Shown one piece after another: positions 2,608-44,042 of a stretch of DNA of 44,962 bases; the stretch's first letter is position 1; each line of letters opens with the position of its first letter. The notes below the pieces were generated by a model that was given only the letters and a program-made list of their open reading frames with translations, did no database searches and was not told where the DNA came from. The stretch comes from Deltaproteobacteria bacterium (GTDB lineage Bacteria > Desulfobacterota > DSM-4660 > Desulfatiglandales > HGW-15): the NCBI GenBank assembly GCA_016932115.1, contig JAFGDM010000061.1, forward strand, positions 1 through 44,962, read 5' to 3'. The position numbers were made by a program, and so were the translations under genes.

Positions 2608-2609
2608 CC

Positions 2610-17872: not shown

Positions 17873-17881
17873 TTGCCGTTT

Positions 17882-17915: not shown

Positions 17916-18015
17916 TTTCCTGATACGGGAGATAGAAGGGGATCGTTTGAAATCCGAATATCGAAATTTTAGAGTAATCAGCTCTGCGGGAAGATTCTCA
18001 CGAAGTACGGAGTAG

Positions 18016-18810: not shown

Positions 18811-18883
18811 TGTTATATGCCATCGTATAAATTTGGTTCTTAGGGGCAGAGATCTTAAGACACGCTGTTAGGAGGGAGAATTC

Positions 18884-25042: not shown

Positions 25043-25064
25043 CGCAGCCTGACATCAGGCTGCG
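25043..25064. other. Perfect inverted repeat upstream of bamB-1
   Basis: CGCAGCCTGA-CA-TCAGGCTGCG, no U-tract. Confidence 0.6.
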
Positions 25065-25088: not shown

Positions 25089-27044
25089 ATGAGGTACGCT
25101 GAAACAGGCTTCCAATTGGAAGTGGATTTGTCAAAGGGAAGCATTGATAAGGTGGAGACCGATCCAAGAGATACTGCAATGTATATAGGGGGGCTGGGTA
25201 TGAACTTGAAGTTGCTGTTTGATCGGGTTCCTCCCGGCACCGATCCATGGTCTCCCGACAACCTGCTCATATTCGGTAACGGTCTTCTGAACGGCACATG
25301 CGTTCCCGGTGCAAATCGCGTGTCGGTCGATACGATCGCCCCTTTAAACGGATTTCTGGGGCATTCCCTGATGGGCGGATTTTTCGGGGCGGAAATGAAA
25401 ATGGCCGGTTACGACAGAATAGTCATTCGGGGCGAGGCGCCGGACCTGGTCTACCTGGCAATCCACAACGACAAGGTGGAGATCCGTGATGCCAGGCATC
25501 TTCGCGGGAAACTCATGGATGAAACGCAGACCTTGATCAAGGATGAGTTGAACGACAAAAGAGCCTGGGTGGCTGCGATTGGTCCGGCCGGGGAGAATAG
25601 GGTCATAATGGCTTCAATCGATTGCGGCAACTCGAGCGCTGCTCGAACGGTCGGACCGGTCATGGGGGCCAAAAAGCTGAAGGCGATTGCCGTCCGGGGA
25701 ACAAAGGACGTGTATCTCGCCCACCCCGACAAAGCCTGGGAGATGTGCTCACGCCTGAGGAAGGAGCTTGATGCGAACCCGAATGTCGGGGACTGGATGG
25801 CGACCGATGAGGATGATAGCTTCCATCACAACAACTTCTCTTGGGGCAATGCCCGTGTACGCCGAAAGACCTTCTGGAGCGCGGAGCTCGAAGAGAGATG
25901 GCGGAACCTGAAGTACGACCACATGAGCCGCTGGACAGGTTGCTGGAACTGCCCGAAGGCATGCCACAATCTAATTCAATGGCCGAACCGGCGAAGATTT
26001 TCCTACAAATGCTACGGAAAAGACACCTATCATATGGCCTCCTTCCAGGAGCTCGACTTCACCTTCGAGATACTCCCTATTGCCATGGACTTAGGGTTGG
26101 ACTCATATTCAACGCCGCAGGTTATCGCCTTTGCCCTTGAGCTCTTGGATGCCGGGATTCTGACTGAAAAAGATTTTCCAGGGATGCCCTCCGACGTGAG
26201 GCAAAGGTTTTACTATCTACTTCAGAAAATAGCGTTTAGAGAAGGCATAGGAGATGTTCTCGCTCATGGTACTTCCGGTGCGGCTGCCATAATAGGTAAA
26301 GGCGCCGAGAAATTCGATCACAACACCGTCAAAAAATTCGAACAGTTACCCATCAAGCTGGGCAAACTCAATCCGGCCTATTTCCTTATGATAGCCACAG
26401 GTGAGGAAATGGCTATCACCCAGACTGAAGGCTCCTTCCCGCAGGACCCGATCACTGACCCGGAGCTGAAAGAGGAATTCATCAAGAACTGGATTGCTGT
26501 TCCGGATAAGAAGTTCCATGAGTGGTTCCGGCAGTGGGAAAAACGTGATCAATTGCCCGACGACGCCATGTGCGCTATTTGTGACTGGAACGAGTGCATG
26601 CACTACCTGGATGATTCCTTGGGGCTTTGCGGATTCGTGTCCTCATTCAGAGGCCAGTTCGGCGGCACCACCGGATATCACGTATGGAATATGCCGAAGG
26701 TCATCACCCATGTGGCTGGGATCGAGTTTGACAAAGACAGGCTGTGGGAATTCTTCCAGAGAATCCGGAATCTGGCCAGAGCCCTCAATAACATAAGGGG
26801 CCTGAGAAGACACATGGAGAGGCCGCCGGACGATCACTGGGCGGTAAGGAATGAGGAGTATGAGCAGCAACTACTGACGAAGTATTATGATTTTAAAGGT
26901 TGGACTTTTGATGGGATTCCCACCAAAGAAACTTTGGAAAGACTGAGCCTGGGCTATGTGGCGGAAGAGCTCATAAAAAATGGTGTTCTGACCGGGAATG
27001 AAGTCACTGCCCTCAACGATATCAGGGCCAAGAAGAAGGAGTAA
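25089..27044 (+). CDS. bamB: BamB-like tungsten-pterin aryl-CoA reductase subunit (AOR family), divergent paralog
   Basis: MRYAETG N-terminus, AIGPAGEN, VMGAKKLKAIAV, FSWGNAR, CWNCPKAC, YKCYGK; collinear with 36151-38160; followed by bamC-I. Confidence 0.85.
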   Translation: MRYAETGFQLEVDLSKGSIDKVETDPRDTAMYIGGLGMNLKLLFDRVPPGTDPWSPDNLLIFGNGLLNGTCVPGANRVSVDTIAPLNGFLGHSLMGGFFGAEMKMAGYDRIVIRGEAPDLVYLAIHNDKVEIRDARHLRGKLMDETQTLIKDELNDKRAWVAAIGPAGENRVIMASIDCGNSSAARTVGPVMGAKKLKAIAVRGTKDVYLAHPDKAWEMCSRLRKELDANPNVGDWMATDEDDSFHHNNFSWGNARVRRKTFWSAELEERWRNLKYDHMSRWTGCWNCPKACHNLIQWPNRRRFSYKCYGKDTYHMASFQELDFTFEILPIAMDLGLDSYSTPQVIAFALELLDAGILTEKDFPGMPSDVRQRFYYLLQKIAFREGIGDVLAHGTSGAAAIIGKGAEKFDHNTVKKFEQLPIKLGKLNPAYFLMIATGEEMAITQTEGSFPQDPITDPELKEEFIKNWIAVPDKKFHEWFRQWEKRDQLPDDAMCAICDWNECMHYLDDSLGLCGFVSSFRGQFGGTTGYHVWNMPKVITHVAGIEFDKDRLWEFFQRIRNLARALNNIRGLRRHMERPPDDHWAVRNEEYEQQLLTKYYDFKGWTFDGIPTKETLERLSLGYVAEELIKNGVLTGNEVTALNDIRAKKKE

Positions 27045-27061
27045 AGGAAGGGGGCCTCGCC

Positions 27062-27607
27062 GTGGACAGCAAGCGAAAGAAAACAAAAATAGTAAAAGAA
27101 ATAAAGGTGGATACCAGCAAATGTGTAGGCTGCAGGGCATGTGAGATAGCCTGCTCGGCCTTCCACGCCGTACCGAAATTTAGCTCGGTGAATACCGCAC
27201 GTTCCCGGATCATGGTCGTCATGGACGAATTCCGAGATATATTCGTGCCGATACGGGCCGGTGACTATGCGCAGGCGGAATGTAATGGGAGAAACCGTTA
27301 CGTGATCGACGGCAAGGAGTACGACGCTTGTACCTTCTGCCCGGCCTCCTGCCCTTCAAGGGATGCTTTTAAAGAGCCTGATTCCGGTCTTCCGCTCAAA
27401 TGCGATATGTGCGAGAGTGTCCCGCCCCTGGAAAAGCCAATGTGCGTCGACGCATGCACGTTTGGTGCCTTGACGTATGAGGAAAGGGAAGAGGAAGGGG
27501 CTGAGGAAGAAAAGCCCGGGGATATGGAGATTGTTTTCGAGGCCTTGGTAAAGAAGCATGGAAAGAAGAAAGTCATGGACACCTTCGCCCGATTGTCGAA
27601 GAGCTAA
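27062..27607 (+). CDS. bamC: Class II benzoyl-CoA reductase Fe-S subunit BamC
   Basis: CVGCRACEIACSAFHA, CTFCPASCPSRD and EPDSGLPLKCDMC; GTG start. Confidence 0.88.
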   Translation: MDSKRKKTKIVKEIKVDTSKCVGCRACEIACSAFHAVPKFSSVNTARSRIMVVMDEFRDIFVPIRAGDYAQAECNGRNRYVIDGKEYDACTFCPASCPSRDAFKEPDSGLPLKCDMCESVPPLEKPMCVDACTFGALTYEEREEEGAEEEKPGDMEIVFEALVKKHGKKKVMDTFARLSKS

Positions 27608-27638
27608 CTATCAGGCGGAAAGAAGAGGATAAGATACG

Positions 27639-28790
27639 GTGGAGACTGTAGCCCCATACAAAGAGATTGTAGATGTTATAAAGGCGAGTGGTGGAGAGGC
27701 CTTCAAGAGATGCTTTCAGTGCGGATTGTGTGATGTGGTTTGTCCGTGGAACAGGGTCAGGACATTCAGCATGCGCAAGCTGGTGCGAGAGGCGACGTTT
27801 GGTTTGACGGATATTGAAAGTGAAGACATGTGGCTTTGCACGACCTGTGGAAGATGCCCCCAGCAGTGTCCCAGGGATGTGCAACAAATAGCATCCGGAG
27901 TCGCCCTGCGCAGGATCGCTACTGAATACGGGGTTTTTCCGAAAACCGTGAAGGCCGTGCGGACTGTGGCGGGAAGCCTTGTTGGGGAAGGGAACCCTCT
28001 GAGTGAAGAGCGTTCAAAGAGGGCGAATTGGGCTGAAGGTCTTTCCGTTAACGCCTTTACGGAGGGGATGGAGATTTTGTATTTTCCGGGCTGCTACCCT
28101 AGCTATGATCCGAGACTGAAGAAGGTGGCGAGGGCTACGGCTACTATACTCAAGCGGGCTGGGGTGGATTTTGGGATTCTGGGTGTCAAGGAGAATTGTT
28201 GTGGAGAAAGCATCCGGAAGACGGGCGATGAGGAGTTGTTCAAACGGCTGGCGAGGGAAAATATCAAGGTGTTTATCGACAATGGTGTGAAGAGGATTTT
28301 GGTGTCTTCTCCGCATTGTCTTCATACCTTCAAGAACGAGTATCCTGAATTCAGGGTAAATTTTGAGGTGATCCATATCACGCAGTATTTATATGAGCTT
28401 ATAAGGGAGGGAAGGCTGGAGCTGAAAGGGGAATATGGGAAGACAGTGACGTATCATGACCCGTGCTATCTGGGTCGGCATAACGGCATTTATGATGAGC
28501 CTCGAGAGATTTTGAAGGGGGTGCCCGGTTTAGAGCTGAAGGAGATGCCTGATTTCAGGGTCAACAGTTTGTGTTGCGGAGGTGGAGGGGGCAGGGTATG
28601 GATGGAGACCCAAAAAGGGGAGAGATTTTCCGACCTCAGGATGGAGCAAGCGATGGGGGTTGGGGCCGAGTTGCTGGTGACTGCCTGCCCGTACTGCATT
28701 ACCATGTTTGAGGATAGCCGGCTGACACTCAATATGACTGAGAAGATAGAAGTTAAGGACATCACGGAGATTGTCCAGGAAGTTATTTAG
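27639..28790 (+). CDS. bamD: BamD, HdrD-like (2x[4Fe-4S] plus two CCG domains)
   Basis: CFQCGLCDVVCP, CTTCGRCPQQCP, ENCCG, YHDPCYLGR, LCCGGGGG and TACPYC. Confidence 0.9.
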   Translation: METVAPYKEIVDVIKASGGEAFKRCFQCGLCDVVCPWNRVRTFSMRKLVREATFGLTDIESEDMWLCTTCGRCPQQCPRDVQQIASGVALRRIATEYGVFPKTVKAVRTVAGSLVGEGNPLSEERSKRANWAEGLSVNAFTEGMEILYFPGCYPSYDPRLKKVARATATILKRAGVDFGILGVKENCCGESIRKTGDEELFKRLARENIKVFIDNGVKRILVSSPHCLHTFKNEYPEFRVNFEVIHITQYLYELIREGRLELKGEYGKTVTYHDPCYLGRHNGIYDEPREILKGVPGLELKEMPDFRVNSLCCGGGGGRVWMETQKGERFSDLRMEQAMGVGAELLVTACPYCITMFEDSRLTLNMTEKIEVKDITEIVQEVI

Positions 28791-28822
28791 AGAACCATCC
28801 CATCGGACAAAGGCGGAGAGAA

Positions 28823-31800
28823 GTGGAAAGAGAACCAGTGGAAGAGCAGTTTTTTAGCAGCCCCGAGGGCGGTAATTTTGGAGATGTTATGGTTGTGGGA
28901 GGCGGGATCAGCGGCATTCAAGCGGCTCTTGATCTTGCCACTGCGGAATTCAAGGTTTATCTGGTTGAAAAGGCGCCGACCATTGGCGGGAAGATGGCCC
29001 AACTGGACAAGACCTTTCCCACCAACGATTGCTCCATGTGCATTGAATCCCCCAAGTTCATTGAATGTGCCAGGCATCCCAATATAGAGATCCTGACCTA
29101 TACCGAAGTCGACACCGTAAAAGGGGAAGCGGGGAACTTCAAGGTCAAGCTGATCAAAAAACCCAGATACATTAAGGAGGACAAATGCACAGGCTGCACG
29201 ACTTGTGTTGAATTCTGCCCGGTCAGGGTTCGGGATCCATATAATCAAGACCTGTCTTTGAACAAAGCCATTCATATCTACTTCTCCCAAGCTGTTCCAC
29301 TCGTCACTTATATAGACCCTGAAAGCTGCCTTTATCTTCAAGGCGAGAAATGTTCGATTTGCGCCGGAGTCTGTAAGAATAAAGCCATCGATCTTCATCA
29401 AGAGGAAGAGGAAATAGAAGTAGAGGTGGGGGCGATCATTCTGGCGCCCGGCTACGAGGTATTCGACCCTAAGTTGAAGGGTGACTATGGCTACGGGAAC
29501 TTTGAGAACGTGGTAACAAGTCTTGAGTTTGAAAGGCTTTTGTGTGCCACCGGGCCGTTCGAAGGTGAGATCTTGCGGCCTTCCGACAAGAAACATCCAC
29601 ATAACATAGCTTGGATTCACTGCGTCGGCTCCAGACGGGTGACCCCGGGCGATAACAGCTATTGTTCAGCGGTGTGCTGCACCTATACTCAAAAACAGGT
29701 GATTTTGACAAAGGACCATGACGCCGAGGCAGAGTGTACCGTATTCCATAATGACATCAGGTCCTATGGTAAGGATTTCGAGCGATTCTACCAGAGAGCG
29801 GAGAATTTACCCGGGGTTCGATTTATAAGGAGCTATGTGTCCATAGGAAGAGAGGTCAAGGAGAGCAAAAATTTAACGATAAAATATTCTACTCCGAAGG
29901 ATGGAGTAAAAGAAGAGGAATTCGACCTGGTGGTCCTGTCTGTCGGCTTGAACCCTCCCGCTGATTTTAAGAGCTTGGCAAACAAGTTCGGCATTGAACT
30001 TGATGCTCATGGATTCTGCAAGACCAATCCACTGAATGCCATGGAGACCTCTCGCCGGGGAATTTTTGTAAGCGGAGCGTTTCAGGGTCCTTTAGATATT
30101 CCTGAGTCGGTTGTGACTGCCAGCGGGGCCGGTTCTCTTTGTGGCCAAATCCTTGGTTACCGGCGGGGGAAGCTGGACAAAGAAAGAGAATATCCACCGG
30201 AAAGGACTGTATCAGGAGAGGAACCCAGGGTGGGGGTTTTTGTGTGCCATTGTGGGGCAAATATCGGAAGGGTGGTCAACGTCCCCTCGGTTGTTGAATA
30301 TGCTTCCACCTTGGACAATGTCGTCCACGCCCAGGAGAGCATCTTTGCGTGTTCTACGGACAATGCCCAGCAAATCGCGGACACGATCCGTGAAAAAAGA
30401 CTCAACCGTGTGGTTGTGGCTGCCTGTACGCCTAGGACCCATGAGCCGCTGTTCCGGGACACACTTCGTGAAGGGGGAATCAATCCCTATTTCTTTGAAA
30501 TGGCCAATATTCGGGAACAATGTTCCTGGGTTCACTCCAAAGAAAAGGAAGATGCCACAAGGAAGGCAAAGGAAATCGTGTGCATGTCGGTTGCCAGAAG
30601 CGCGCTCTTGGAGCCTTTACAGGAATTCGAGTTGCCGGTCGACAAGCGGGCATTGGTTGTAGGAGGAGGTTTGGCCGGCATGACCGGTGCTATGAGCCTT
30701 GCTGAGCAGGGATTTGAGGTTTACCTGGTGGAAAAAGATACAAACCTGGGAGGGACGGCACGAAGAATCTATTACACCTTGGAAGGGATGGATGTTCAAG
30801 CTTATTTGCGTGATGTGATCCGGAAGGTTTATCATCATCCCTCCATTCATGTTGTTACAGATGCGACTATCACCGAGGCTTCCGGTTATGTGGGCAATTT
30901 CGTAACCAAGGTGAAGTCCGGGAGAACGGCCAAGGAGATACACCACGGAGTAACCATCATTGCTACCGGCGCTGAAGAATATAAACCGACGGAATATCTT
31001 TATGGGAAAGAGGACGGGGTATTGACTCAGTTGGAGTTGGAGGAGAAGATCAATAAAAGAGAAGAAAAATTGATCAGCTCAAAGACTGTGGTGATGATCC
31101 AGTGTGTAGGCTGCAGACAGCAAGACCGAAACTACTGCAGCCGGGTCTGCTGCAGCCAGGCTATCAAGAACGCCCTGAAACTCAAAGAGATCAACCCTCA
31201 TATGGACCTATACGTCCTCTTCAGGGACATGAGAACGTACGGGTTCAAAGAGGACTATTACCGCGAAGCGTCGGAGAAGGATGTCAAATTCATCCGCTAT
31301 GAGCCGGATGACAAACCCCAGGTAGAAGCGGTTGAGGAGGAAGGTCGCCGCGTTCTAAGGGTTACCGTGACCGACGACATTTTAGGGAAGAAGCTTCAAA
31401 TAGACGCTGACGCCGTCGCTCTGGCGGCCGCCGTTATTCCGTCGGCAGGAACTCAGGAAATATCCCGGTTGTTCAAGGTCGCTTTGAATCCCGATGGTTT
31501 CTTCCAGGAAGCGCACGTAAAACTAAGACCTGTTGACTTTGCTGCGGAAGGCGTTTTCCTTTGTGGGACGGCTCATTATCCCAAGCATATATCGGAGACG
31601 ATCAGCCAAGCATACGGAGCTGCCGGCCGGGCTGTAACGATTCTCACGAAAGATTCAGTCATAGCTTCCGGTGCTATTTGCGAGGTTAATGAGAGTGACT
31701 GTGTATCCTGCGGGGCATGTATTTCAGTTTGTACTTATGGTGCTATAGAATTTGTTGATACACCACGAGGCAAAAAAGCCAGGGTCAACCCTGTTCTCTG

Positions 31801-31951
31801 TAAGGGAGACGGCCTCTGTAATTCAAGATGTCCGACAGGGGCTATTTCACTGAAGCACTTTACTGATGAAGAGGTCTTCTGCGAAATCGACGCGGCGCTT
31901 CACAGCCCTGTGGAATTTCCAGCAATAAACAAAGTCGGCATTGCCGATTGA
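28823..31951 (+). CDS. bamE: BamE, HdrA-like flavin-bifurcating subunit (Cys form)
   Basis: Two FAD motifs ([16 protein letters not shown]), [21 protein letters not shown]-x2-[13 protein letters not shown] and ferredoxin motifs. Confidence 0.92.
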   Translation: MEREPVEEQFFSSPEGGNFGDVMVVGGGISGIQAALDLATAEFKVYLVEKAPTIGGKMAQLDKTFPTNDCSMCIESPKFIECARHPNIEILTYTEVDTVKGEAGNFKVKLIKKPRYIKEDKCTGCTTCVEFCPVRVRDPYNQDLSLNKAIHIYFSQAVPLVTYIDPESCLYLQGEKCSICAGVCKNKAIDLHQEEEEIEVEVGAIILAPGYEVFDPKLKGDYGYGNFENVVTSLEFERLLCATGPFEGEILRPSDKKHPHNIAWIHCVGSRRVTPGDNSYCSAVCCTYTQKQVILTKDHDAEAECTVFHNDIRSYGKDFERFYQRAENLPGVRFIRSYVSIGREVKESKNLTIKYSTPKDGVKEEEFDLVVLSVGLNPPADFKSLANKFGIELDAHGFCKTNPLNAMETSRRGIFVSGAFQGPLDIPESVVTASGAGSLCGQILGYRRGKLDKEREYPPERTVSGEEPRVGVFVCHCGANIGRVVNVPSVVEYASTLDNVVHAQESIFACSTDNAQQIADTIREKRLNRVVVAACTPRTHEPLFRDTLREGGINPYFFEMANIREQCSWVHSKEKEDATRKAKEIVCMSVARSALLEPLQEFELPVDKRALVVGGGLAGMTGAMSLAEQGFEVYLVEKDTNLGGTARRIYYTLEGMDVQAYLRDVIRKVYHHPSIHVVTDATITEASGYVGNFVTKVKSGRTAKEIHHGVTIIATGAEEYKPTEYLYGKEDGVLTQLELEEKINKREEKLISSKTVVMIQCVGCRQQDRNYCSRVCCSQAIKNALKLKEINPHMDLYVLFRDMRTYGFKEDYYREASEKDVKFIRYEPDDKPQVEAVEEEGRRVLRVTVTDDILGKKLQIDADAVALAAAVIPSAGTQEISRLFKVALNPDGFFQEAHVKLRPVDFAAEGVFLCGTAHYPKHISETISQAYGAAGRAVTILTKDSVIASGAICEVNESDCVSCGACISVCTYGAIEFVDTPRGKKARVNPVLCKGDGLCNSRCPTGAISLKHFTDEEVFCEIDAALHSPVEFPAINKVGIAD

Positions 31952-31965
31952 GGAGAGAGATAATA

Positions 31966-32721
31966 ATGGGTGCAGGGGTTGTTTTTAAACCAAGGATCTT
32001 AGGTTTTCTATGCAATTGGTGAGGATACTCGGCTGCTGACCTGGCTGGAGTTTCCAGACTGCAATATACGACTGAAATCAAGCTGATCCGCCTCATGTGC
32101 ACCGGCAGAGTGGATTTGGCGTTCATACTTCGAGCTTTCTCAAATGGAGCAGACGGGGTGTTGGTTGTTGGTTGTTGGCCCGGCGAATGCCATTATCTTA
32201 CTGAGGGAAATTACGGTGCATTGAGCATGACTCATCTGTGTAGAAAATTACTGGATTACATAGGGGTGAACCCCGAGAGATTGGGGCTTGAATGGGTGTC
32301 AGCCTCCGAGGGAAGCCGTTTCGCGGAAGTCGTGAATGACTTTGCGAAAAAGGTAAAGGACTTGGGGCCTTTCGGCAACGCCGAAAATGGATTAAAGATG
32401 AAACTTGAAGCAGTCGACAATTTACTCCCCTACATTAAGCTGGTCGAAAGGGAGAAACTAAGAGTGCGGTTTAAGACAGAAGAAGAATATAACGAATTCT
32501 TCACGAGTGATGAGATAGATAGGATATTTCAAGAAGTAATTGTAAATAAATTGGAAATTAGTCGGATCATGAGACTCCTGCGAGAAAAGCCCCTCTCGAC
32601 CGGGGAAATTTCCGGGCTTTTGGGCGTAACCCCATCTGAAGCATCAAAGCATCTTGGCAGTTTAGCAAGACAAGGATTAATAAGGTTTGACGAAAGCCTG
32701 AAGCGTTTTGTTCCTGCCTAG
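31966..32721 (+). CDS. bamF: BamF, MvhD-like selenoprotein with C-terminal winged-HTH (Sec at TGA 32020-32022)
   Basis: ATG 31966 is in frame with the track ORF at 32095: MGAGVVFKPRILGFLCNW-U-GYSAADLAG...MCTGRV...GCWPGECHY; U occupies the second Cys of the MvhD CxWC motif. Confidence 0.88.
32045..32057 (+). promoter_or_regulatory. Bacterial SECIS hairpin of bamF-1
   Basis: CTGGA-GTT-TCCAG, 22 nt after the UGA, G in the loop; identical sequence in bamF-2. Confidence 0.7.
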
Positions 32722-32775
32722 AGCGAGAGAATTGGAACCAAATTAGGGGAGATGAAAAGGAATAGGACAGCGGCT

Positions 32776-33228
32776 ATGGATAAGGGCAAAATCGATAAGA
32801 TTATAGACAAATATGAGGGCGACGCCGGTTCACTCATTCAGGCATTACTGGAGATTCAGAGCGAAAATCGCTGGCTTCCCAAAGAGGTTTTGGCGAAGGT
32901 AAGCAAGAAATTGAACGTGCCCTTGAGCCGCATACAGCACATCGTGACATTTTATAAGGCCTTTAGTTTAGTTCCTAAAGGGCGTCACGAAGTTCACGTG
33001 TGCACGGGCACGGCCTGTCATGTTCGCGGAGCGCCGCGTCTTCTCGACTCGGTTAAAGACCTGATTGGAATAAGTCCCGGGGAGACGGACATGGATTTAA
33101 AGTATAGCCTGGAGACTGTGAACTGCGTCGGCTGCTGCGCTTTAGGACCGGTGATGGTAATCGATGGTGAATATTACGGAAAGATGTCACCGGCCAAGTC
33201 TGAAGATGTGTTGAAAAACTATGATTAA
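32776..33228 (+). CDS. bamG: BamG, NuoE-like [2Fe-2S] subunit
   Basis: TFYKAF, CTGTACHVRG and NCVGCCALGPV; alternative start 32752. Confidence 0.9.
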   Translation: MDKGKIDKIIDKYEGDAGSLIQALLEIQSENRWLPKEVLAKVSKKLNVPLSRIQHIVTFYKAFSLVPKGRHEVHVCTGTACHVRGAPRLLDSVKDLIGISPGETDMDLKYSLETVNCVGCCALGPVMVIDGEYYGKMSPAKSEDVLKNYD

Positions 33229-33237
33229 GGGAAAATT

Positions 33238-35175: not shown

Positions 35176-35807
35176 ACGAAATGCTTTTACAGATTGATGG
35201 AAAAGAAGTTAAGGCAAGCGAAGGAATGACCATTCTGGAGGCTGCACGAAGTGTCGGGATATCGATTCCCACACTTTGTCACCACGAGAAATTAAACCCT
35301 TATGGGGCTTGCCGCATTTGCACTGTGGAAGTAGAAGCCGGCGGGAGGACAAATTTTGTTCCTGCCTGCATTTACCCGGCGGCAAGTGGTTTGGTGGTAA
35401 GAACCAGATCTGAGAAAATAGATAAAACCCGCAAAATGATCTTGGAACTGATGCTCTCTCACGCTCCGGATGCCCCGGCATTAAAAGATTTGGCTAAAGA
35501 ATACGGTGCAGACAGAGACCGTTTTGAAAAGGAACCGTCATTTTGCATTCTTTGTGGTCTATGTGTAAGATACTGTGCTGAAGTCAAGAAGAAGAGTGCT
35601 GTCGGATTTATTGACAGAGGACCAAATCGGGAGATAAATTTCATTCCCGAGATCGCATCCAAGGAGTGCTGGAACTGCAAGGAGTGCTTTCCACTCTGCC
35701 CAACATCGTATCTACAGACAGCTTACCATTTAACGGAAGCGCTCGCGTTTCCCTCATCGTCTTTCCTTCGAACTCGCCTCAGAGGGACCCCCATGCTTGG
35801 TGCTTAA
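35172..35807 (+). CDS. bamI: BamI, NuoG N-terminal-like Fe-S subunit
   Basis: IPTLCHH, GACRIC, CILCGLCVRYC and CWNCKECFPLCP; ATGA overlap with bamH. Confidence 0.88.
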   Translation: MNEMLLQIDGKEVKASEGMTILEAARSVGISIPTLCHHEKLNPYGACRICTVEVEAGGRTNFVPACIYPAASGLVVRTRSEKIDKTRKMILELMLSHAPDAPALKDLAKEYGADRDRFEKEPSFCILCGLCVRYCAEVKKKSAVGFIDRGPNREINFIPEIASKECWNCKECFPLCPTSYLQTAYHLTEALAFPSSSFLRTRLRGTPMLGA

Positions 35808-35883
35808 GGTGTTTTCAAAAAGCCGAAGTGTTACGAAATTTCAAATATCTTTGGCTAGCTTTACACATGAGTAGACTTTTTTC

Positions 35884-35939
35884 TTGACACATAGTTATTA
35901 TGTAGCTATATAGTAGTCACGCCGTACCGGATACCGGAC
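35884..35939 (+). promoter_or_regulatory. sigma70 promoter and IclR-type operator for bam cluster 2
   Basis: TTGACA (35884-35889), TATATAGT (35907-35914), imperfect palindrome GTACC-GGATAC-CGGAC (35924-35939). Confidence 0.5.
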
Positions 35940-36150
35940 ATGGCGGATAATCTATTCTTCTGACCGAGGGGGTTTCTTTGACTTACATTGAAAGGCTCAC
36001 TTAACCCTATACTGATGGGATTGATTTTGAAAAAATAAGGATTTCAGGAGATCGAACGGTTTAAAACCTCGCCAAATAAATAAGTGTCTGAAACCAATAA
36101 GGAATCAAAAAGTACGCCGCGGATTCAGGTAAAACGGAAGAGGAGAAAAA

Positions 36151-38160
36151 ATGAGGTACGCAGAGACAGGGTTTAATTTAGAGATTGATCTGTCCCGGGG
36201 AAGCATTGAAAGGGTGGAGACTGACTCAAGATTAACCGAGCTTCATCTTGGGGGGCTGGGCACCAACAGCAAGATATTGTGGGACAGGGTTCCACCTGAG
36301 ACCGAGCCCTTTTCTCCTGATAATTTGTTGATCTTCGGGACGGGTCTCTTGTGCGGCACACCGGCCCCCGGTGCGAATCGGACCATTATTACAACCTATT
36401 CTCCTCAGACCTTGTACATGGGCTATTCCATGATGGGAGGGTTTTTGGCGCCGGAACTGAAGTATGCCGGGTATGACAAAGTGATTTTTCGCGGCAAGTC
36501 TCCCAACATGGTTTACCTGTGGATCAACAATGACAAGGTGGAAATACGGGATGCCTCTCATCTCCGGGGCAAAGGCGCTGTCGAAACTTCGGAGATCATT
36601 CGACGGGAGTTGAAGGACCCCAAAGCCCAGGTCGCTGCCATCGGACTGGCCGGTGAAAACCGGGTGTACATGGCCAGCATAGAGCAAGGCCGGTCCAGCG
36701 CCAGCCGATTGGGCCTGGGCGCCGTCATGGGCGACAAAGGGCTAAAGGCCGTTGCCGTTCGCGGAACGAAGGACATTAACATCGCCCGCCCGGCTGAATT
36801 CATGCAGCTCTGCAACGAGGTGCTACAGTACATCAAAGTCCGGGCCCCCAACCTTATCCCTGAAGTCATGCCGATTTTGGCCGGGCTTGGGTCTCCCCAG
36901 GAGATGGCCCATTACGATGAGAAGTGGCACACCGAGAATTTCATGTGGGGGAATGCCCGGGTCCGGAGAAAAGAATTCTGGAACGACGAGATCGAAAAGA
37001 TGTGGAAGAACACGCTGGAGAGCGTTCGGACTCGGCTTATTAGCTGTTACAACTGCCCGATGAAGTGCGGGGCCATTATTTCCGTCCCCGGAATTTCCAC
37101 CTACATGATGAAATGCTTCACGAAATTGACCTACGCCATGGCGGCCTTTGCCGAGGACTCCGAATTTGGTTTTAAGATCGCGCAGCAGGCCACGGAATAT
37201 GGGGTGGATGGGTTCTCTATGCCGCAAACCATGGCTTTTGCCTTTGAGCTAAAAGAGGCCGGGATCTTGACGGACGCGGACTTTGAAGGATGCCCTACCG
37301 ACAAGGAGGGAAGATTTTATTGGTTGCTGGACCGTATTGTCCGACGGGAAGGAATAGGGGATGTGCTGGCCGACGGCACCTATTGGGCGGCCAAGCAGAT
37401 CGGCAAGGGCGCCGAAGAATATGCTCACAACAATATCAAGAAACACGAACAGCTCCCTCTCAAGCTGGGCATGCTGAACCCTATCTATTTCCTGATGTAT
37501 TGTACCGGGGAGAAGAGTAACATCACACAAATCGAAGGGAATTTCCCCCAAGCGCCTTTTTCCACATTGGAGCTCAAAGAAGCCTTTGTGAAAGACTGGG
37601 TCCAAGCTCCGAATGACAGGTTTAAGCAGTATGTTCTGGACTGGGAATTCCGAGGGGAGCACTCCATGCCCTTCTACCCGCCGCCCGAAGCCTGTTGTGA
37701 AATCGTGGAATGGCAGGAAAAGATGCACCATATCGATGACGCGCTCGGGTTGTGCGCCGGCTTGTCGTCATTTCCCCTGAAACCTCCCTACCATATCCAC
37801 AATCTGCCCCTTTTTATCTCAGCGGCGACAGGTATGGACATGGATGAAGACGGGCTGACGCACATCTTCAACAGAAACCGGAACCTGGTGAGAGCCATCA
37901 ATGTGAGAAGAGGTTTGAGACGGGCCGATGAGAAGCCGCCGGAGGACCATTGGAAGAAGAGATTTCCCGAGCTTGAGACGAAGCTCCTTGATACCTATTA
38001 CGCGTTCAAAGGATGGAATCAGGACGGCATTCCTACCAAGGAGTCATTGCAGGCCCTGGGGTTGGACTATGTCGCTGAGGACTTCCTCAAGAGAGGAATC
38101 TTGACAAACGAGGACAGGGCTTTTTCCAACGAAACTGCGTCGGAAACAGAGGAGAAATAA
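36151..38160 (+). CDS. bamB: Class II benzoyl-CoA reductase tungsten active-site subunit BamB (canonical)
   Basis: SIEQGRSSASR, ILAGLGSPQEM, DEKWHTENF, RLISCYNCPMKC, YMMKCFTKLTY, TQIEG, SSFPLKPPYHIHN; these match Geobacter metallireducens BamB as recalled. Confidence 0.93.
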   Translation: MRYAETGFNLEIDLSRGSIERVETDSRLTELHLGGLGTNSKILWDRVPPETEPFSPDNLLIFGTGLLCGTPAPGANRTIITTYSPQTLYMGYSMMGGFLAPELKYAGYDKVIFRGKSPNMVYLWINNDKVEIRDASHLRGKGAVETSEIIRRELKDPKAQVAAIGLAGENRVYMASIEQGRSSASRLGLGAVMGDKGLKAVAVRGTKDINIARPAEFMQLCNEVLQYIKVRAPNLIPEVMPILAGLGSPQEMAHYDEKWHTENFMWGNARVRRKEFWNDEIEKMWKNTLESVRTRLISCYNCPMKCGAIISVPGISTYMMKCFTKLTYAMAAFAEDSEFGFKIAQQATEYGVDGFSMPQTMAFAFELKEAGILTDADFEGCPTDKEGRFYWLLDRIVRREGIGDVLADGTYWAAKQIGKGAEEYAHNNIKKHEQLPLKLGMLNPIYFLMYCTGEKSNITQIEGNFPQAPFSTLELKEAFVKDWVQAPNDRFKQYVLDWEFRGEHSMPFYPPPEACCEIVEWQEKMHHIDDALGLCAGLSSFPLKPPYHIHNLPLFISAATGMDMDEDGLTHIFNRNRNLVRAINVRRGLRRADEKPPEDHWKKRFPELETKLLDTYYAFKGWNQDGIPTKESLQALGLDYVAEDFLKRGILTNEDRAFSNETASETEEK

Positions 38161-38181
38161 GGTGAAGAGGTGGTAGCCGTC

Positions 38182-38730
38182 ATGGGTGAGAAGAAAAAGA
38201 AGATCGTCAAAACAATCAAAATTGATGTCGATAAATGCAACGGTTGCCGGGCCTGTGAGATGATCTGCTCAGCCTTTCATGCTCAACCGAAATACAGCAG
38301 CAATAATCCCGCAAGGTCTCGCATTCGGGTGATTCACGATCCTCTCCGAGACGTCTATGTCCCCGTATACGCCGGCGAGTATGCGAAGGCCGAATGCATG
38401 GGCAGAGACAAATACGTGATCGACGGAAAGGAGTACGACGAGTGTGCCTTTTGCAGGGCCTCCTGCCCGTCCAGAGATATTTTCAAAGAGCCCGATTCAG
38501 GGCTTCCTCTCAAATGCGATATGTGCGAAGACGATCCCCGGCAGGAGACGCCCTTGTGTGTTCAGTGGTGCTTGAATGATGCCCTGATTTACGAAGAGAG
38601 AGAAGAGGAAATCGAAGAAGAAGTGAAACAGGAGGACATGGAGATCGGATTGGAGTCCATGATCGACAAGTATGGATTGGACAAGATCATGGAGAGCGTG
38701 GCTCGGATTTCCCTTTCAAAAAAAGCTTAA
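38182..38730 (+). CDS. bamC: BamC Fe-S subunit
   Basis: CNGCRACEMICSAFHA, CAFCRASCPSRD and EPDSGLPLKCDMC; SD GAGGTGG. Confidence 0.9.
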   Translation: MGEKKKKIVKTIKIDVDKCNGCRACEMICSAFHAQPKYSSNNPARSRIRVIHDPLRDVYVPVYAGEYAKAECMGRDKYVIDGKEYDECAFCRASCPSRDIFKEPDSGLPLKCDMCEDDPRQETPLCVQWCLNDALIYEEREEEIEEEVKQEDMEIGLESMIDKYGLDKIMESVARISLSKKA

Positions 38731-38765
38731 GCCCTTAGGGCACAAGAAAAGGACGAAGGAAAGCT

Positions 38766-39917
38766 GTGGAGATTGTTGTCCCCTACAAAGAGATCGTTGA
38801 CGTCATCAAGGCGAGCGGCGGAGACGCCTTCAAAAGATGCTTTCAGTGCGGACTGTGCGATGTGGTCTGCCCGTGGAACAGGGTCAGGACCTTTAGCATG
38901 CGCAGGCTGGTCCGGGAGGCAACCTTCGGGTTGACGGACATTGAAAGTGAAGATATGTGGCTTTGCACGACCTGCGGGAGATGCCCCCAGCAGTGCCCCC
39001 GGGACGTGAAACAAATCGAGTCCGGAGTGGCCTTGCGCAGGATTGCCACGGAATACGGCGTTTTCCCCAAATCAGTGACACCGATCCGAACGGTTCGGGG
39101 AAGCCTGGTGGGGGAAGGGAACACCTTGGGGGAGGAACGGGCCAAGCGGGGGGATTGGGCCAAAGGCCTTTCGGTGAACGAGTTTAGCGAGGGTATGGAA
39201 ATTTTGTATTTTCCCGGCTGCTATCCCAGCTATGACCCAAGGTCAAAGAAGCTTGCGGTGGCCACGGCCACGATCCTGAACAAGGCGGGGGTGGATTTTG
39301 GGATTCTGGGCACCAAGGAGAACTGCTGCGGGGAGAGCATCCGCAAGACGGGGGATGAGGAAGTCTTCAAGCGTTTGGCCAGGGAGAATATCAAGACCTT
39401 TGTGGATCACGGGGTGAAGAAGATTTTGGTCAGTTCCCCTCATTGTTACCACACGTTCAAGAACGAGTATCCGGATTTTATGGTGAACTTTGAGGTGATT
39501 CACATGTCCCAGTTTTTGTTTGGGCTTATGAAAGAGGGTAAACTGGAGATCGGCAAGGAATATGAGAAGACGGTGACTTATCATGACCCCTGCTACCTGG
39601 GTCGTCACAACGGCATTTTGGAGGAGCCCCGGGAAATTCTGAAGAGAGTACCCGGGCTTACGTTGAACGAGATGCCCGACTGCCGGATGGACAGTCTGTG
39701 TTGCGGAGGGGGAGGAGGCAGGGTTTGGATGGAGACCCAGAAGGGGCAGAGATTTTCCGACCTCAGGCTGGAGCAAGCCGTAGGGGTCGGGGCCGAGGTG
39801 CTGGTGACGGCGTGCCCGTATTGCATAACCATGTTTGAGGATAGCCGGTTGACCCTGAACCTCACGGAGAAGATCAAAGTGAAGGATCTTACGGAAATCA
39901 TCGCGGAGGTGATTTAG
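38766..39917 (+). CDS. bamD: BamD, HdrD-like subunit
   Basis: Same 383 aa length and motifs as 27639-28790. Confidence 0.9.
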   Translation: MEIVVPYKEIVDVIKASGGDAFKRCFQCGLCDVVCPWNRVRTFSMRRLVREATFGLTDIESEDMWLCTTCGRCPQQCPRDVKQIESGVALRRIATEYGVFPKSVTPIRTVRGSLVGEGNTLGEERAKRGDWAKGLSVNEFSEGMEILYFPGCYPSYDPRSKKLAVATATILNKAGVDFGILGTKENCCGESIRKTGDEEVFKRLARENIKTFVDHGVKKILVSSPHCYHTFKNEYPDFMVNFEVIHMSQFLFGLMKEGKLEIGKEYEKTVTYHDPCYLGRHNGILEEPREILKRVPGLTLNEMPDCRMDSLCCGGGGGRVWMETQKGQRFSDLRLEQAVGVGAEVLVTACPYCITMFEDSRLTLNLTEKIKVKDLTEIIAEVI

Positions 39918-39950
39918 GAGAATCATCCCATAGGACAAAGGCGGATCAAA

Positions 39951-42900
39951 GTGGAAAAAGAACTCATCGAACAGTTTCGTAAGAGTGTCTCGGACAAGGA
40001 TTTTGGAGACGTCATGGTGGTGGGGGGAGGGATCAGCGGGATTCAAGCCTCCCTGGACCTGGCCACAGCCGGCTTCAAGGTTTACCTGGTGGAGAAAGCC
40101 CCGAGCATCGGCGGCCGCATGGCGCAGCTGGACAAAACCTTTCCCACCAATGACTGCTCCATGTGAATCCTCGCCCCTAAACTGGTCGAGGTCGGCCGGC
40201 ACCCCAACATCGAAGTTCTGACCTATACGGAAGTTCACCGCGTCGAAGGAGCGGTGGGTGACTTCAACGTGACGCTGATTAAAAAGCCTAGGTATATTCT
40301 GGAGGAAAAGTGCACGGGTTGTACGACCTGTGTTGAATATTGCCCTGCCAAATACCCGGATGAGTACAATCAGGAGATATCGAAGAACAAAGCGGTCCAC
40401 ATCTACTTCGCTCAAGCCATTCCACTGATCGCCTACATTGATGAAAGCTGTCTGTATCTCAAAGAGAACAAATGTCGGATTTGCGAAGGGGTCTGCAAGA
40501 ATAACGCCATCGACCTGAAACAAACGCCGAAGAAAAGAGAAATTACCGTAGGCGCAATCCTCCTGGCGCCCGGCTTTGAGCCCTTTGATCCGAAGACCAA
40601 GGAAGAATATCACTACGGGGAGTTCGCGAATGTGGTCACCAGTATGGACTATGAGCGACTGTTGTGCTCCACAGGACCATACTCAGGGGAGATCCTGCGC
40701 GGTTCCGACATGAAGCATCCCCACAAGGTCGCCTGGATTCAATGCGTGGGCTCCAGGCGGGTCACTCCCGGTGAAAACAGCTATTGTTCGGCTGTGTGCT
40801 GCACCTATACCCAGAAACAGGTCATTCTGACAAAAGATCATCATGCAGAGGCCGAATGTACCGTCTTTCACAACGACATTCGGTCCTACGGGAAGGATTT
40901 TGAGCGCTATTACGAAAGGACGGAACAACTTCCGGGCGTGCGCTTTATCCGAAGCTACGCCTCCATTGTGAGAGAGGACCCGAACACCAAGAATGTCACG
41001 GTACGTTATTCCACCTTTGACGAGGGGGTCAAAGAGGAAGCATTCGATATGGTGGTCCTTTCGGTCGGGTTGAATCCGCCCGTCGATGCTAAGGACGTGG
41101 CGGAAAAATTCGGCATCCAGCTCGATCCGAACAATTTCTGCAAGCTGAACCCCGTCAATCCCATGGAGAGCAACAGGCCCGGAATCTATGTGAGCGGTGC
41201 CTTTCAGGGTCCCATTGATATTCCGGAGTCGGTTTTCAGCGCCAGCGGCGCAGGCTCCCAAATCGGCCAACTCCTTGACTATCGGCGAGGCAATCTTGCC
41301 GAGGAAAGGGTCTATCCAAGTGAAAGGGATGTTTCCAAGGAGGAGCCGAGAATAGGGGTCTTTGTGTGTCACTGCGGGGCCAATATCGGAAGGATCGTCA
41401 ATGTTCCAGAAACAGTCGAGTACTGCAAAACCCTGCCCAGTGTCGTTTACGCTCAGGAACAGCTGTTTTCGTGTGCCACCAACTCCGCCAGAGAAATCAC
41501 GGATGTTACAAAGGAAAAAGGGCTGAATCGAGTGGTCATTGCCGCCTGCTCCCCCAGGACTCTTGAACCGCTGTTCCGCGACACGGTTCGGGAGGCGGGA
41601 ATCAATCAGTATTTCTGTGAGATGGCAAATATCCGGGAGCACGATTCCTGGGTCCACTCCAAAGAAAAGGAAGAGGCCACGGAGAAAGCCAAGGACATCA
41701 TTCGCATGTCCGTGGCCCGAGCCTGTCATTTGGAGCCGCTGCAAGAGTTTGATCTCCCGGTCAACAAAGCGGCGCTTGTAGTAGGCGGAGGGGTGGCAGG
41801 CATGAACTGCGCTCTCTCTATAGCCAACCAGGGGCATGAGGTTCATTTGGTGGAAAAGGCTAAAGAGCTTGGCGGCATGGTAAGAAGGGTCTATTCCACC
41901 CTGGAGGGGCTGGACGTGCAGGCCTATTTACACGATTTGATCGCAAAGGTTTATGGGCACCCGCTCATCCATGTGTATCATGATGCGACCATCACAGAGG
42001 CTACAGGGTATGTCGGCAACTTCGTGACCGTGGTGAAGTCTGAAACGGGAGTCGCCGAGATCAAACACGGGGCAAGCGTCATTACCATTGGAGCTGATCT
42101 CTACACGCCGACCGAATATCTATACGGACAAGATGAACGAGTCATGACCCATCTGGATCTGGAAGGCCGAATCGCCGAGAGGGATGAAAAGATCGTAAAC
42201 GCAAAAAGCCTTGTGATGATTCATTGCGTGGGCTGTAGAAATGAAGACAGAAACTACTGCAGCCGGATTTGTTGCAGCCAGTCGGTAAAGAACGCTTTGA
42301 GGCTCAAAGAGATCAACCCTCAGATGGATATCACCATTCTTTTCAGGGATATGAGGACCTATGGGTTCAAAGAGGATTTTTACCGGGAAGCCTCCAACAA
42401 AGATGTCAAATTCATTCGCTATGAACCTCAAGAGCCGCCTCAGGTGGAAGCGGGCGAGTCGGACGAGGGTCGGCCCGTACTGAAGGTTACTGCGCCGGAC
42501 TATGTTATGGGGAAAAAGCTGGTCATTGATGCTGATATCCTTGCTTTGGCGGCCGCCGTCATTCCCTCTGCGGCAACGAATGAAGTGGCCGCACTGTTCA
42601 AGGTCACGTTGAGCCCGGACGGCTTTTTCAAAGAAGCCCACGTTAAACTCAGACCGGTTGAGTTTGGTACGGAAGGAGTGTATCTGTGCGGACTCGCTCA
42701 CTACCCCAAGTTCATGCAGGAAACGATCAACCAGGCTTATGGAGCGGCAGGCCGGGTTTTAACCCTTCTTTCTCATGACACGGTCGTCGCCTCCGGATCT
42801 GTGGCCCAGGTCAACGAGAGCCGGTGTATAGGGTGCGGGGCCTGTGTTTCCGCGTGTACTTATGGGGCTTTGGACCTCCGAGACACGAAACAGGGGAAAA

Positions 42901-43076
42901 AAGCCATGGTGAACCCCGTTCTGTGCAAAGGAGACGGTCTCTGCAATTCAAAGTGTCCCACGGGGGCGATTCAGTTGAAGCATTATACCGATCAAGAGCT
43001 TTTGAGTGAAATTGATGCCATGGCAACGGAGGAAGAGATCTTGCCGGAGATGGATGCTGCGGTTGGAGATGTGTAG
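39951..43076 (+). CDS. bamE: BamE, HdrA-like selenoprotein (Sec at TGA 40164-40166), 1041 aa
   Basis: Track ORFs 39951-40166 and 40254-43076 are one frame; the read-through [22 protein letters not shown] aligns to NDCSM-C-IESPKFIECARHPNIE in bamE-1. Confidence 0.92.
40182..40199 (+). promoter_or_regulatory. Bacterial SECIS hairpin of bamE-2
   Basis: CTGGTCG-AGGT-CGGCCGG, a 7 bp stem with G-U pairs 15 nt after the UGA; absent from the Cys paralog. Confidence 0.75.
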
Positions 43077-43202
43077 CAGGTTGTTTAAAGACATTGGATG
43101 AAAGGCGCGCGTTTTGGGTGCGAGTGACGAGATAAAAGCACGAACTTGTCACTTCCCTGTGAAGAGAAAGCCGTAACCACGGAAAGAAGAGGGAAAAACT
43201 AG

Positions 43203-44042
43203 ATGAGTGCAAGACCTAAATTCAAGCCTAAATTGTTGGGTTTCGTGTGCCATTGGTGAGCGTACGGGGCTGCTGATCTGGCTGGAGTTTCCAGACTTCA
43301 ATACACGACTGAAATGAGGCTGATCCGCGTCATGTGCTCCGGCAGAGTGGATATGTCCTTTGTCCTCAGAGCCTTTTTGAACGGAATCGATGGGGTCTTC
43401 ATTGGGGCCTGCCGCTTGAATGAATGCAATTATGTGACTCAGGGAAATTATCATGCCCTCAACATGGTGCTTTTGTCGAAAAGAGTCCTCGAACACATGG
43501 GGCTGAACCCGGAACGATTAAAAATCGAATTCATGTCGGCCGCCGACGCCAACATTTTTGCGGAAGGCGTCAATGCTTTTGTCAAGAAGGTGAAATCGTT
43601 GGGGCCCCTTGGGGAAGGCGAGGGAATCAATCGACATGAACTCAAGTCCAGGCTTGTAGAGATCTCTAAACTCGTCCCCTACTTTAAGATGGCTAACCAG
43701 GAGAAACTGGCCTCCCACCTCAAAACACCGGAGGAGTACGATGGGCTATTCACGAAAGAGGAGATCGACAGGCTCTTTACTGAAATGGTCTCCTACTATA
43801 TCGATCCGGAGAAGTGCCAGGCCTGTATGACTTGCCTGAGAAGGTGTCCTGTAGAGGCGATTGTCGGGGGCAAGAACAGGATCCACGTCATTGACCAGGA
43901 TAAATGCATCAAATGCGGAACCTGTTTTGAAGCCTGCCCTCCTCGCTTCGGCGCGGTGAAAAAAATTTCCGGCGAGCCTGTTCCGGCCCCTATTCCCGAA
44001 GAAAAAAGAACGATAGTGAGAAAGAGTAAAGAAGCGAGTTAA
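43203..44042 (+). CDS. bamF: BamF, MvhD-like selenoprotein with C-terminal 2x[4Fe-4S] domain (Sec at TGA 43257-43259)
   Basis: MSARPKFKPKLLGFVCHW-U-AYGAADLAG is in frame with the track ORF at 43314; MCSGRV, GACRLNECNY, CQACMTCLRRCP and CIKCGTCFEACP. Confidence 0.9.
43282..43294 (+). promoter_or_regulatory. Bacterial SECIS hairpin of bamF-2
   Basis: CTGGA-GTT-TCCAG, 22 nt after the UGA, as in bamF-1. Confidence 0.7.

Follow-up and report, generated by a model that had tools for sequence, protein, structure and literature searches.

Tandem class II benzoyl-CoA reductase gene clusters of apparently separate descent, probably with different electron inputs, in a deltaproteobacterial metagenome bin

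The window analyzed here is a stretch of 44,962 nucleotides, the whole of contig C54 of a 3.73-Mb, 323-contig Deltaproteobacteria metagenome bin that is 95% complete and that has uncultured “delta proteobacterium” and Syntrophaceae bins as its nearest named relatives. It carries two gene clusters in tandem for class II benzoyl-CoA reductase (Bam), a tungsten enzyme for the oxygen-independent breakdown of the benzene ring. We consider it likely, with considerable room for doubt, that they encode two complete class II benzoyl-CoA reductase systems that evolved separately and work as separate enzymes with different electron inputs. Cluster 1 would be a full Geobacter-type machine of eight subunits, following the whole Geobacter-type path from NADH and ferredoxin, with a divergent BamB paralogue whose proton-relay/Zn motif appears rebuilt; cluster 2 would run on reduced ferredoxin alone and feed a canonical BamB. 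Gene content, a domain swap in BamF, phylogenies and the distribution of the two forms carry this reading, and from them we infer the electron paths, the separate assembly and the regulation.

The region from 25089 to 44042 holds 13 genes, all on the plus strand, and the gene layout that the earlier note gave for both clusters is borne out by the positions of the open reading frames (ORFs) and by Pfam domains. Cluster 1 (25089-35807) reads B'CDE(Cys)F(Sec, wHTH)GHI, where Sec stands for selenocysteine and wHTH for a winged helix-turn-helix domain; all eight genes, bamB to bamI, are co-oriented and in the same order as in Geobacter. Cluster 2 (36151-44042) reads BCDE(Sec)F(Sec, 2x[4Fe-4S]) and is without GHI. 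NCBIfam holds no Bam-specific model, and all of its matches stayed below cut-off except for the generic NuoF model NF010120, which H1 passes. The features of the two clusters are the following, with the evidence for each in parentheses.

25089..27044, +, bamB' (B1), 651 aa, divergent tungsten catalytic subunit (AFOR_N/AFOR_C)
27062..27607, +, bamC (C1) (Fer4, 4Fe-4S)
27639..28790, +, bamD (D1), 383 aa, HdrD-like (two CCG domains plus dicluster)
28823..31951, +, bamE (E1), double HdrA-like, Cys70-x-x-Cys73, Lys291 (domains, alignment)
31966..32721, +, bamF (F1), MvhD-like, Sec19, C-terminal wHTH (FlpD plus HTH_5, residues 200-239)
32752..33228, +, bamG (G1), NuoE/HydC-like (2Fe-2S_thioredx, PF01257, 2.9e-50)
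33238..35175, +, bamH (H1), NuoF/HydB-like (Complex1_51K/NADH_4Fe-4S/Fer4)
34918-35169, +, C-terminal 2x[4Fe-4S] domain of bamH (H1) (Pfam)
35172..35807, +, bamI (I1), NuoG N-terminal-like (Fer2_4 plus Fer4)
35808..36150, +, 343-nt intergenic gap with a sigma-70-like match at 35872-35901, TTGACA at 35885 (consensus match only)
36151..38160, +, bamB (B2), 669 aa, canonical catalytic subunit (AFOR_N/AFOR_C; 4Z3W match)
38170..38730, +, bamC (C2) (4Fe-4S, Pfam)
38766..39917, +, bamD (D2), 383 aa (two CCG domains plus dicluster)
39951..43076, +, bamE (E2), double HdrA-like, Cys69-x-x-Sec72, Lys290 (domains, alignment)
43203..44042, +, bamF-Fd (F2), MvhD-like, Sec19, fused 2x[4Fe-4S], no wHTH (FlpD plus 2x Fer4, about residues 198-250)
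43782-44033, +, fused 2x[4Fe-4S] domain of F2 (homologous to the BamH C terminus)

In Pfam searches HTH_5, an ArsR-type winged helix forming the C terminus, is found in F1 only and the double Fer4 in F2 only. The two BamF proteins align to about residue 186/190, and their divergence starts exactly at the wHTH or the ferredoxin (Fd) domain. Residues 194-277 of F2 share 79% protein identity, tail included, with the C-terminal domain of H1; because their synonymous sites are saturated (synonymous substitutions per site [dS], 2.30), this ancestry is shared but old.

What these domains would do can be read from Geobacter, for which the accessible part of a preprint (10.64898/2026.04.10.717634) describes BamGH as a HydBC-type confurcating input, assigns the uptake of external reduced ferredoxin to the C-terminal Fd domain of BamH (its clusters H1/H2), has the wHTH of BamF interface with BamI and Sec19 lie near the [2Fe-2S] cluster, puts a Cys59-Cys62 relay of BamE at the bifurcating flavin adenine dinucleotide (FAD; Lys280), and passes the high-potential electron from BamD to the electron-transferring flavoprotein (ETF), at about +16 mV. 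In alignment with Geobacter sp. BamE, the relay residues are Cys70, Cys73 and Lys291 in E1 and Cys69, Sec72 and Lys290 in E2. Given this ETF potential and those quoted elsewhere for ferredoxin (−500 mV), the tungsten cofactor (−650 mV) and menaquinone (−70 mV) (excerpted from PMC12096430), a ferredoxin-only path would be feasible. Cluster 2 would thus have neither an NADH site nor a dock for BamI, would keep its ferredoxin acceptor on BamF, and would pass electrons from reduced ferredoxin through BamF/BamE to the canonical BamB by a single HdrA-type bifurcation. Since F2 lacks the BamI-docking wHTH and has a ferredoxin-accepting domain of its own, cluster 2 probably does not borrow the GHI of cluster 1 but takes reduced ferredoxin directly. 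The earlier note had left two options, a shared NAD(H) module or different electron partners; different partners fit these features better, and sharing is unlikely.

There is no GHI downstream of cluster 2. Its neighbor there is a convergent DUF362 gene, and contig C270, which overlaps the end of the window (44876-44962 with 7021-7104 of C270; 28/28 DUF362 residues identical), has no G, H or I match. Nor does the 95%-complete assembly hold a second bamGHI, although the earlier note had raised one dedicated to cluster 2 as a possibility. The other NuoEFG-like sets, on C7, C101 and C112, stand in other operons and reach at most 56% identity (28-56% to G1/H1/I1; 48-56% for the NuoF-like proteins against H1), and none is beside a BamB-type (>50%) gene. 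On the side of the high-potential electron, six ETF gene pairs (12 matches) are present in this genome. Contig C320 (33-4230) carries a BamC-like (44%) and a BamD-like (37%) gene followed by an ETF beta/alpha pair, a set that possibly encodes a D-ETF link outside the Bam locus.

The five-gene arrangement of cluster 2 is widespread. Eighty loci were fetched with the BamB alignment, one genome per species, and 48 of them were informative, the remaining 32 ending before bamF. The F-Fd fusion occurs in 27 of the 48, F-wHTH followed by G(HI) in 20, and F-wHTH without GHI in one. All 25 F-Fd loci with at least 1.8 kb of downstream sequence lack a G/H/I match, and the other two end at a contig edge. 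This short form, BamBCDEF-Fd, includes Syntrophorhabdus aromaticivorans UI (L037) and a bin of the same genus as ours, G002 (L019; 99% complete), in which the five-gene cluster is the only Bam cluster found, with no BamH match above 58% and no B1-type gene (at 89% identity or more).

In a tree of the Fd domains, 29 F-fused domains form one group among 22 BamH C termini (one change; Shimodaira-Hasegawa-like approximate likelihood ratio test [SH-aLRT], 85), and 27 of the 29 F-Fd N-domains fall in one clade (support, 98). On this sequence evidence, the most economical account is a single ancient fusion in which the wHTH and bamG were lost along with the part of bamH upstream of its C-terminal Fd domain, that is, the N-terminal 2Fe-2S domain, the flavin mononucleotide (FMN) core and the linker; the fusion was most likely a single event, long before this genome. 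Further, the label F-Fd or F-wHTH changes seven times on the BamE tree, at least six of these changes being forced by well-supported branches, so input modules have apparently been re-paired repeatedly with BCDE cores. It is in this evolutionary sense that the “mix-and-match” system proposed in the earlier note holds. Taken physically, the proposal would have BamBC heads and DEF cores combine freely, with cluster 2 borrowing the GHI of cluster 1. We regard this as quite improbable, given that F2 is without the wHTH said to contact BamI and has its own ferredoxin-accepting domain, that the five-gene form is without adjacent GHI in 25/25 loci, and that G002 has the short form without a B1-type gene (at least 89%) or a close BamH.

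The two clusters are also of different descent, as judged from trees and synonymous divergence. The BamE tree pairs E1, as sister, with the BamE of an eight-gene B' cluster in G021 (support, 98-99) and places it among “CSMCIESP” Cys-type lineages, Geobacter included; E2 is nested deep in the Sec-type clade, and a forced E1+E2 clade is rejected (log likelihood lower by 364; approximately unbiased [AU] test, p=4e-7). As that clade is rejected, B1 belongs to a separate clade, and synonymous sites are near saturation, the pair is not a recent tandem duplication, and on this evidence the clusters are old, separately evolved lineages. One could still imagine a recent duplication after which one copy lost GHI by in-frame deletion, with bamF joined to the 3' end of bamH, while the bamB of the other copy diverged fast; the gene order common to both clusters and the 79% identity of the F2 Fd domain to the H1 C terminus, C-terminal tail included, would fit such a course. 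We consider it very improbable, since, besides the rejected E1+E2 clade and the saturated synonymous sites, B1 and B2 fall in different deep clades, and F2 and its Fd domain group with F-Fd of many lineages and not with F1/H1.

The junction itself is not an assembly artifact of this bin, because the same neighborhood recurs in G016, where E1, F1, G, H and I are followed 140 nt on by a canonical B, and, in the reverse order, in G009, where E2 and F2 (F-Fd) precede an IclR gene, a small ORF and B1, C1 and D1. Hence, misassembly of two strains, which the earlier note had allowed for, can be set aside; the clusters are also too different to be strain variants.

Divergence between the clusters is uneven. 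Protein identity is 51% for BamB, in line with the strong divergence noted earlier, 64% for BamC, 84% for BamD, 70% for BamE and 51% for the BamF N-domain. The BamD copies had been called near-identical in length and sequence. Their lengths are indeed equal (383 aa each), but the proteins differ at 62/383 positions, and the genes are 79% identical in DNA, with no identical run longer than 23 nt. By the Nei-Gojobori method, the dS values of B, C, D, E and F come to 2.27, 2.23, 1.32, 2.05 and 1.42, respectively, near saturation in every pair, whereas nonsynonymous substitutions per site (dN) amount to 0.098 for D versus 0.21-0.43 for the other subunits. The BamD copies are therefore alike because BamD is strongly constrained and the slowest-evolving subunit, and D1 is equally close (84%) to D2 and to the BamD of an unrelated bin (L046). 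The likeness had been taken as a mark of modules interchangeable in the cell, which these comparisons do not support. At alignment column 227, both D1 and D2 carry Cys, in contrast to the Ser of Geobacter sp. BamD.

Tree placement of D1 depends on the model. Under posterior mean site frequencies (PMSF) it stands beside D2 and the same-genus orthologue of D2 (SH-aLRT, 96), and under LG+G4 this grouping loses support and a grouping of D1 with the D of G021 is not rejected (AU p=0.30). Recent bamD gene conversion in this genome was considered and rejected, in view of the dS of 1.32, the longest identical run of 23 nt and the model-dependent tree; an ancient bamD exchange is possible on the same data. 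For free combination of heads and cores, then, the conservation of BamD (84%, the best of the subunits) and its placement in the PMSF tree count in favor; the loss of that placement under LG+G4, the unrejected D1+G021 alternative and a dS that leaves no recent conversion here count against. A related idea is that the BamDE core, BamD above all, serves as a common socket on which the B'C' and BC heads and the input modules assemble, whichever core they meet, with hybrids formed in vivo. If that were so, the tandem locus would be a toolkit that tunes substrate range as well as the choice between ferredoxin alone and ferredoxin plus NADH as electron donor, but we hold the idea to be speculative and rather unlikely.

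The catalytic subunits of the two clusters are of two kinds, and the two unlike catalytic heads proposed in the earlier note are well founded. B2 matches crystallized Geobacter BamB (4Z3W) over residues 1-652 with about 78% identity (E=0, 1127 bits), and B1 matches it with about 50% identity (695 bits, E=9e-208). In a FastTree phylogeny of 102 BamB sequences, B1 falls in a 13-member B' clade that includes extra BamB paralogues of Geobacter bins and is split from 89 canonical BamB sequences with an SH-like support of 100. Common to the B' clade are an RGQFGG insertion and a 12-residue deletion just upstream of the Zn/proton-relay motif. The tungsten of BamB has one Cys and one water ligand. As excerpted from PMC12096430, Cys322 is the tungsten ligand, and Glu251, His255, Glu257 and His260 are called invariant. 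B2 keeps Glu251, His254, His255, Glu257, His260 and Cys322, so that this Zn/proton-relay set is complete. In B1 it is not: Glu251 and His254/255 are missing, the stretch that holds them being replaced throughout the B' clade, and position 257 is Asp. B1 nevertheless has an AOR-family fold with Cys322 and the FeS cysteines Cys299, Cys302 and Cys306, and retains His260.

Selenocysteine further separates the clusters. In-frame TGA codons stand at codon 19 of F1 (32020-32022), codon 72 of E2 (40164-40166) and codon 19 of F2 (43257-43259); at the homologous place E1 has TGC (29039) and therefore Cys instead of Sec. TGA is found at the same positions elsewhere, in 49 different BamF sequences and 54 different BamE sequences from other loci, contig C241 of this genome carries a tRNA-SeC gene, and comparative pairing reveals hairpins 18-22 nt downstream of each TGA, as listed.

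32042-32061, hairpin 3' of the F1 TGA (comparative pairing)
40182-40199, hairpin 3' of the E2 TGA (comparative pairing)
43279-43298, hairpin 3' of the F2 TGA (comparative pairing)

The BamF hairpin is paired in 381/392 cells of 49 Sec-type sequences versus 10/32 in 4 Cys-type sequences, and the BamE hairpin in 378/378 cells of 54 Sec-type versus 51/70 in 10 Cys-type sequences, with a few compensatory changes. Pair counts were used because single-sequence folds of these putative selenocysteine insertion sequences were no better than those of shuffles (z, −0.68, 0.51 and 1.31). Reading of the TGA codons as Sec is thus supported by the tRNA-SeC gene, the recurrence across loci and the conserved hairpins. 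BamE has Sec in all 27 short-form clusters; of 21 F-wHTH clusters, 14 have Sec and 7 have Cys. Four loci (L077, L070, L092 and L005) are selenium-free, with Cys in both BamE and BamF, and L077 additionally is without bamC, has a truncated bamD and shows no GHI within 5.7 kb.

Upstream of cluster 1 lie a putative regulatory gene and several smaller features.

22914..23732, +, FdhD/NarQ-family gene, upstream of cluster 1 (Pfam PF02634, 4.6e-59)
23964..24722, +, IclR-family regulator (Pfam IclR_C plus HTH_IclR)
24799..25005, +, small ORF of 68 codons between the IclR gene and B1 (read from the sequence)
25043..25064, no strand, perfect palindrome with a 9-bp stem, just 5' of the B1 ribosome site (sequence)

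IclR homologues are found directly upstream of B1-type genes in L012 (83%), L011 (77%), L001 (52%), L013 (50%) and L005 (49%), and the small-ORF stretch is kept upstream of B1 in L012 and L001 as conserved DNA only; the 68-codon ORF itself has no NCBIfam match. A regulator of its own suggests that cluster 1 is induced by a specific compound. Because of this regulator and the divergent BamB, cluster 1 is probably induced separately and would then act either on a benzoyl-CoA analogue or as a conditional isoenzyme. The earlier note had given each cluster a promoter of its own. This is plausible for cluster 2, as the 343-nt gap has a TTGACA-type match and no plus-strand terminator-like site, yet the 23 promoter-like matches in the region do not clearly exceed the number in shuffles (15.8; standard deviation, 4.0). 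An Rfam scan of 24000-44962 returned one chance-level match only (ilvB-OMG, 17 bits versus a gathering score of 95.9). Among contigs of two metatranscriptome runs of the same study, three exact pieces lie on B2 and F2 in run X2, weak evidence that comes from contigs only and may reflect DNA carry-over, and on the conserved N termini of E1 and E2 both runs yielded only 30- to 43-nt pieces. None of the listed DNA contig pieces spans the I1 stop, and the run that they come from may be that of the source sample.

These data bear on another explanation, in which the clusters encode redundant isoenzymes for the same substrate, the choice between them depending on redox state or the supply of selenium. 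Cluster 2, with two Sec and ferredoxin as its sole input, would be the default, and cluster 1, with one Sec and input from NADH plus ferredoxin, would spare selenium and ferredoxin. Cys in E1 where E2 has Sec, the different input modules, the retention by B1 of the tungsten-ligand Cys, His260 and the FeS cysteines, and the exact RNA contigs on B2 and F2, weak as they are, agree with it. However, B1 is only about 50% identical to characterized BamB and has lost part of the “invariant” motif, the dedicated IclR regulator points to a particular compound as inducer, and the BamF of cluster 1 still needs Sec. We therefore hold redundancy to be unlikely, albeit with some appeal.

Against two separate enzymes with different inputs, several observations have to be weighed, some of them from relatives with B1 orthologues (89-94% identity; G007, G009, G012, G013, G016 and G024). 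The two bamD of G009 are identical over about 97 nt at contig breaks. In the B1-type cluster of G024 (L012, G024:C135, about 2181-2342), what is left of bamD immediately upstream of bamE amounts to about 55 codons and contains two in-frame stops. Lone B' genes without a bamC-F match downstream occur in L008 (G001:C243, 5739-7679) and L007 (G017:C690, 11387-13339). A decayed bamD, an identical bamD 5' stretch and lone B' genes count in favor of free combination of heads and cores and hint at a common BamDE socket, and Desulfococcus multivorans offers a precedent: as far as PMC5109826 was accessible, it doubles bamB-D only and must share the rest, whereas here both sets are complete and their input modules differ. 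In our own data, the Fd-domain tree rests on 84 columns with a support of 85, and the N-domains of two F-Fd genes (L032 and L044) group with F1 and Geobacter. The promoter of cluster 2 is a matter of consensus matches, B1 with its Cys322, His260 and FeS cysteines may still reduce benzoyl-CoA itself, and separate assembly is deduced from one preprint on Geobacter. Together, the relatives suggest that parts can be shared; none of these observations in relatives concerns this genome, and we retain two separate enzymes as the likely reading.

Contigs break at or just inside bamD in G009, G013 and G007. In G009, the contigs of L001 and L002 (G009:C61 and C31) both reach no further than codon 36 of bamD before they end, and L001 also begins within a bamD 3' end; the two copies are probably a near-identical repeat. 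The lone B' gene of G017 stands directly after an F-Fd gene. The BamH of B1-type clusters varies as well, a further hint in favor of the common-socket idea: in G009 (L105, G009:C87, 4933-6561) it is an ORF of 542 aa without an Fd domain, in G007 (L106, G007:C169, 6090-7748) the domain is apparently lacking (the match stops at query residue 556/645), and both are 59% identical to H1 though B1 is 89% conserved. In G016 (L108, G016:C340, 2991-5659) BamH is apparently fused to a GltD/NfnB-like FAD/NAD(P)H domain, an assignment made provisional by masked bases and a frame break.

Among the neighboring genes, FdhD-like genes, which would encode a maturase of the sulfur-transferase type, turn up next to bam genes in 17 other loci, in many cases immediately downstream of bamF or bamI, and one such gene in a Bam cluster is named an “FdhD-like insertase” in the accessible part of a preprint. 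A Qrc-like set at 14657-20125 comprises a cytochrome c7-type protein, a molybdopterin subunit with an Fe4S4 domain, a 4Fe-4S protein and an NrfD-type membrane protein. Qrc was considered as a conserved partner of Bam and rejected, as none of the other loci examined has a counterpart of it near bam genes. The menaquinone link suggested in the earlier note is therefore not a conserved association, and coincidence, which that note had allowed for, is most likely; four unrelated genes separate the set from cluster 1. Elsewhere in the window, positions 4050-11951 form a single ORF of 2633 codons, upstream of which are pilin-like genes with PilW and PilX_N domains (1618-3592) of the type IV pilus minor type. 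Beyond its overlap with the window, C270 carries a molybdopterin oxidoreductase-like gene and a further IclR-like gene.

In the preprint model, ring reduction needs confurcation of NADH and ferredoxin by BamGH followed by bifurcation at BamE. The short form suggests that many anaerobes skip the first coupled step and keep only its ferredoxin-docking domain, moved onto BamF. The tandem pair described here would join one form with the textbook catalytic subunit to another with a variant subunit and its own regulator. An organism with both forms offers a natural comparison for asking whether ring reduction needs the NADH module on energetic grounds or uses it as an optional economy, and what role the widespread BamB paralogues have, and there is a practical gain in better annotation of anaerobic aromatic degradation in sediments and aquifers.

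Compared with the Bam[(BC)2DEFGHI]2 complex of Geobacter metallireducens (4Z3W-4Z40; 10.64898/2026.04.10.717634, accessible part), cluster 1 is alike in its eight genes and their order, in Cys-x-x-Cys of BamE, in Sec19 and the wHTH of BamF, and in the build of BamH, which runs from an N-terminal 2Fe-2S domain through an FMN core to a C-terminal 2x[4Fe-4S] domain. It differs in that its BamB is of the B' type, about 50% identical and with the Glu251/His255 region rebuilt, and here it is the cluster lacking GHI that has the canonical BamB (B2). With the short BamB-F clusters of S. aromaticivorans UI and of culture BzS1 (PMC13416013, as excerpted), cluster 2 shares its five genes, the F-Fd fusion, a Sec in each of E and F, and the absence of GHI; here, in contrast, it stands directly beside a full eight-gene cluster. 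In D. multivorans (PMC5109826, accessible part), two bamB-D copies lie in one cluster, both BamB proteins have been detected, and likewise one BamB is near that of Geobacter and one divergent (66% identical to each other). Desulfotomaculum gibsoniae (excerpt of PMC4148979), with six bamB and at least two adjacent bamCDEFGHI sets, similarly has several paralogue sets per locus. With respect to HydABC-type bifurcating enzymes (excerpt of PMC9304861), BamGHI are homologues of BfuCBA, and the domain fused to F2 is the BfuB/HydB-type C-terminal Fd domain; in cluster 2, unlike in HydB/BfuB, that domain is off the FMN/NADH core and on an MvhD-type adaptor. We did not find the F-Fd fusion or its BamH origin described in the literature, with subscription papers and supplements, which may cover it, outside our scope. 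Hence, the eight-gene form is already in print, and so is the short form, as “BamB-F” annotations. What is new is a full-input B' form directly beside a short canonical form, together with the evidence that the two are old and separate lineages.

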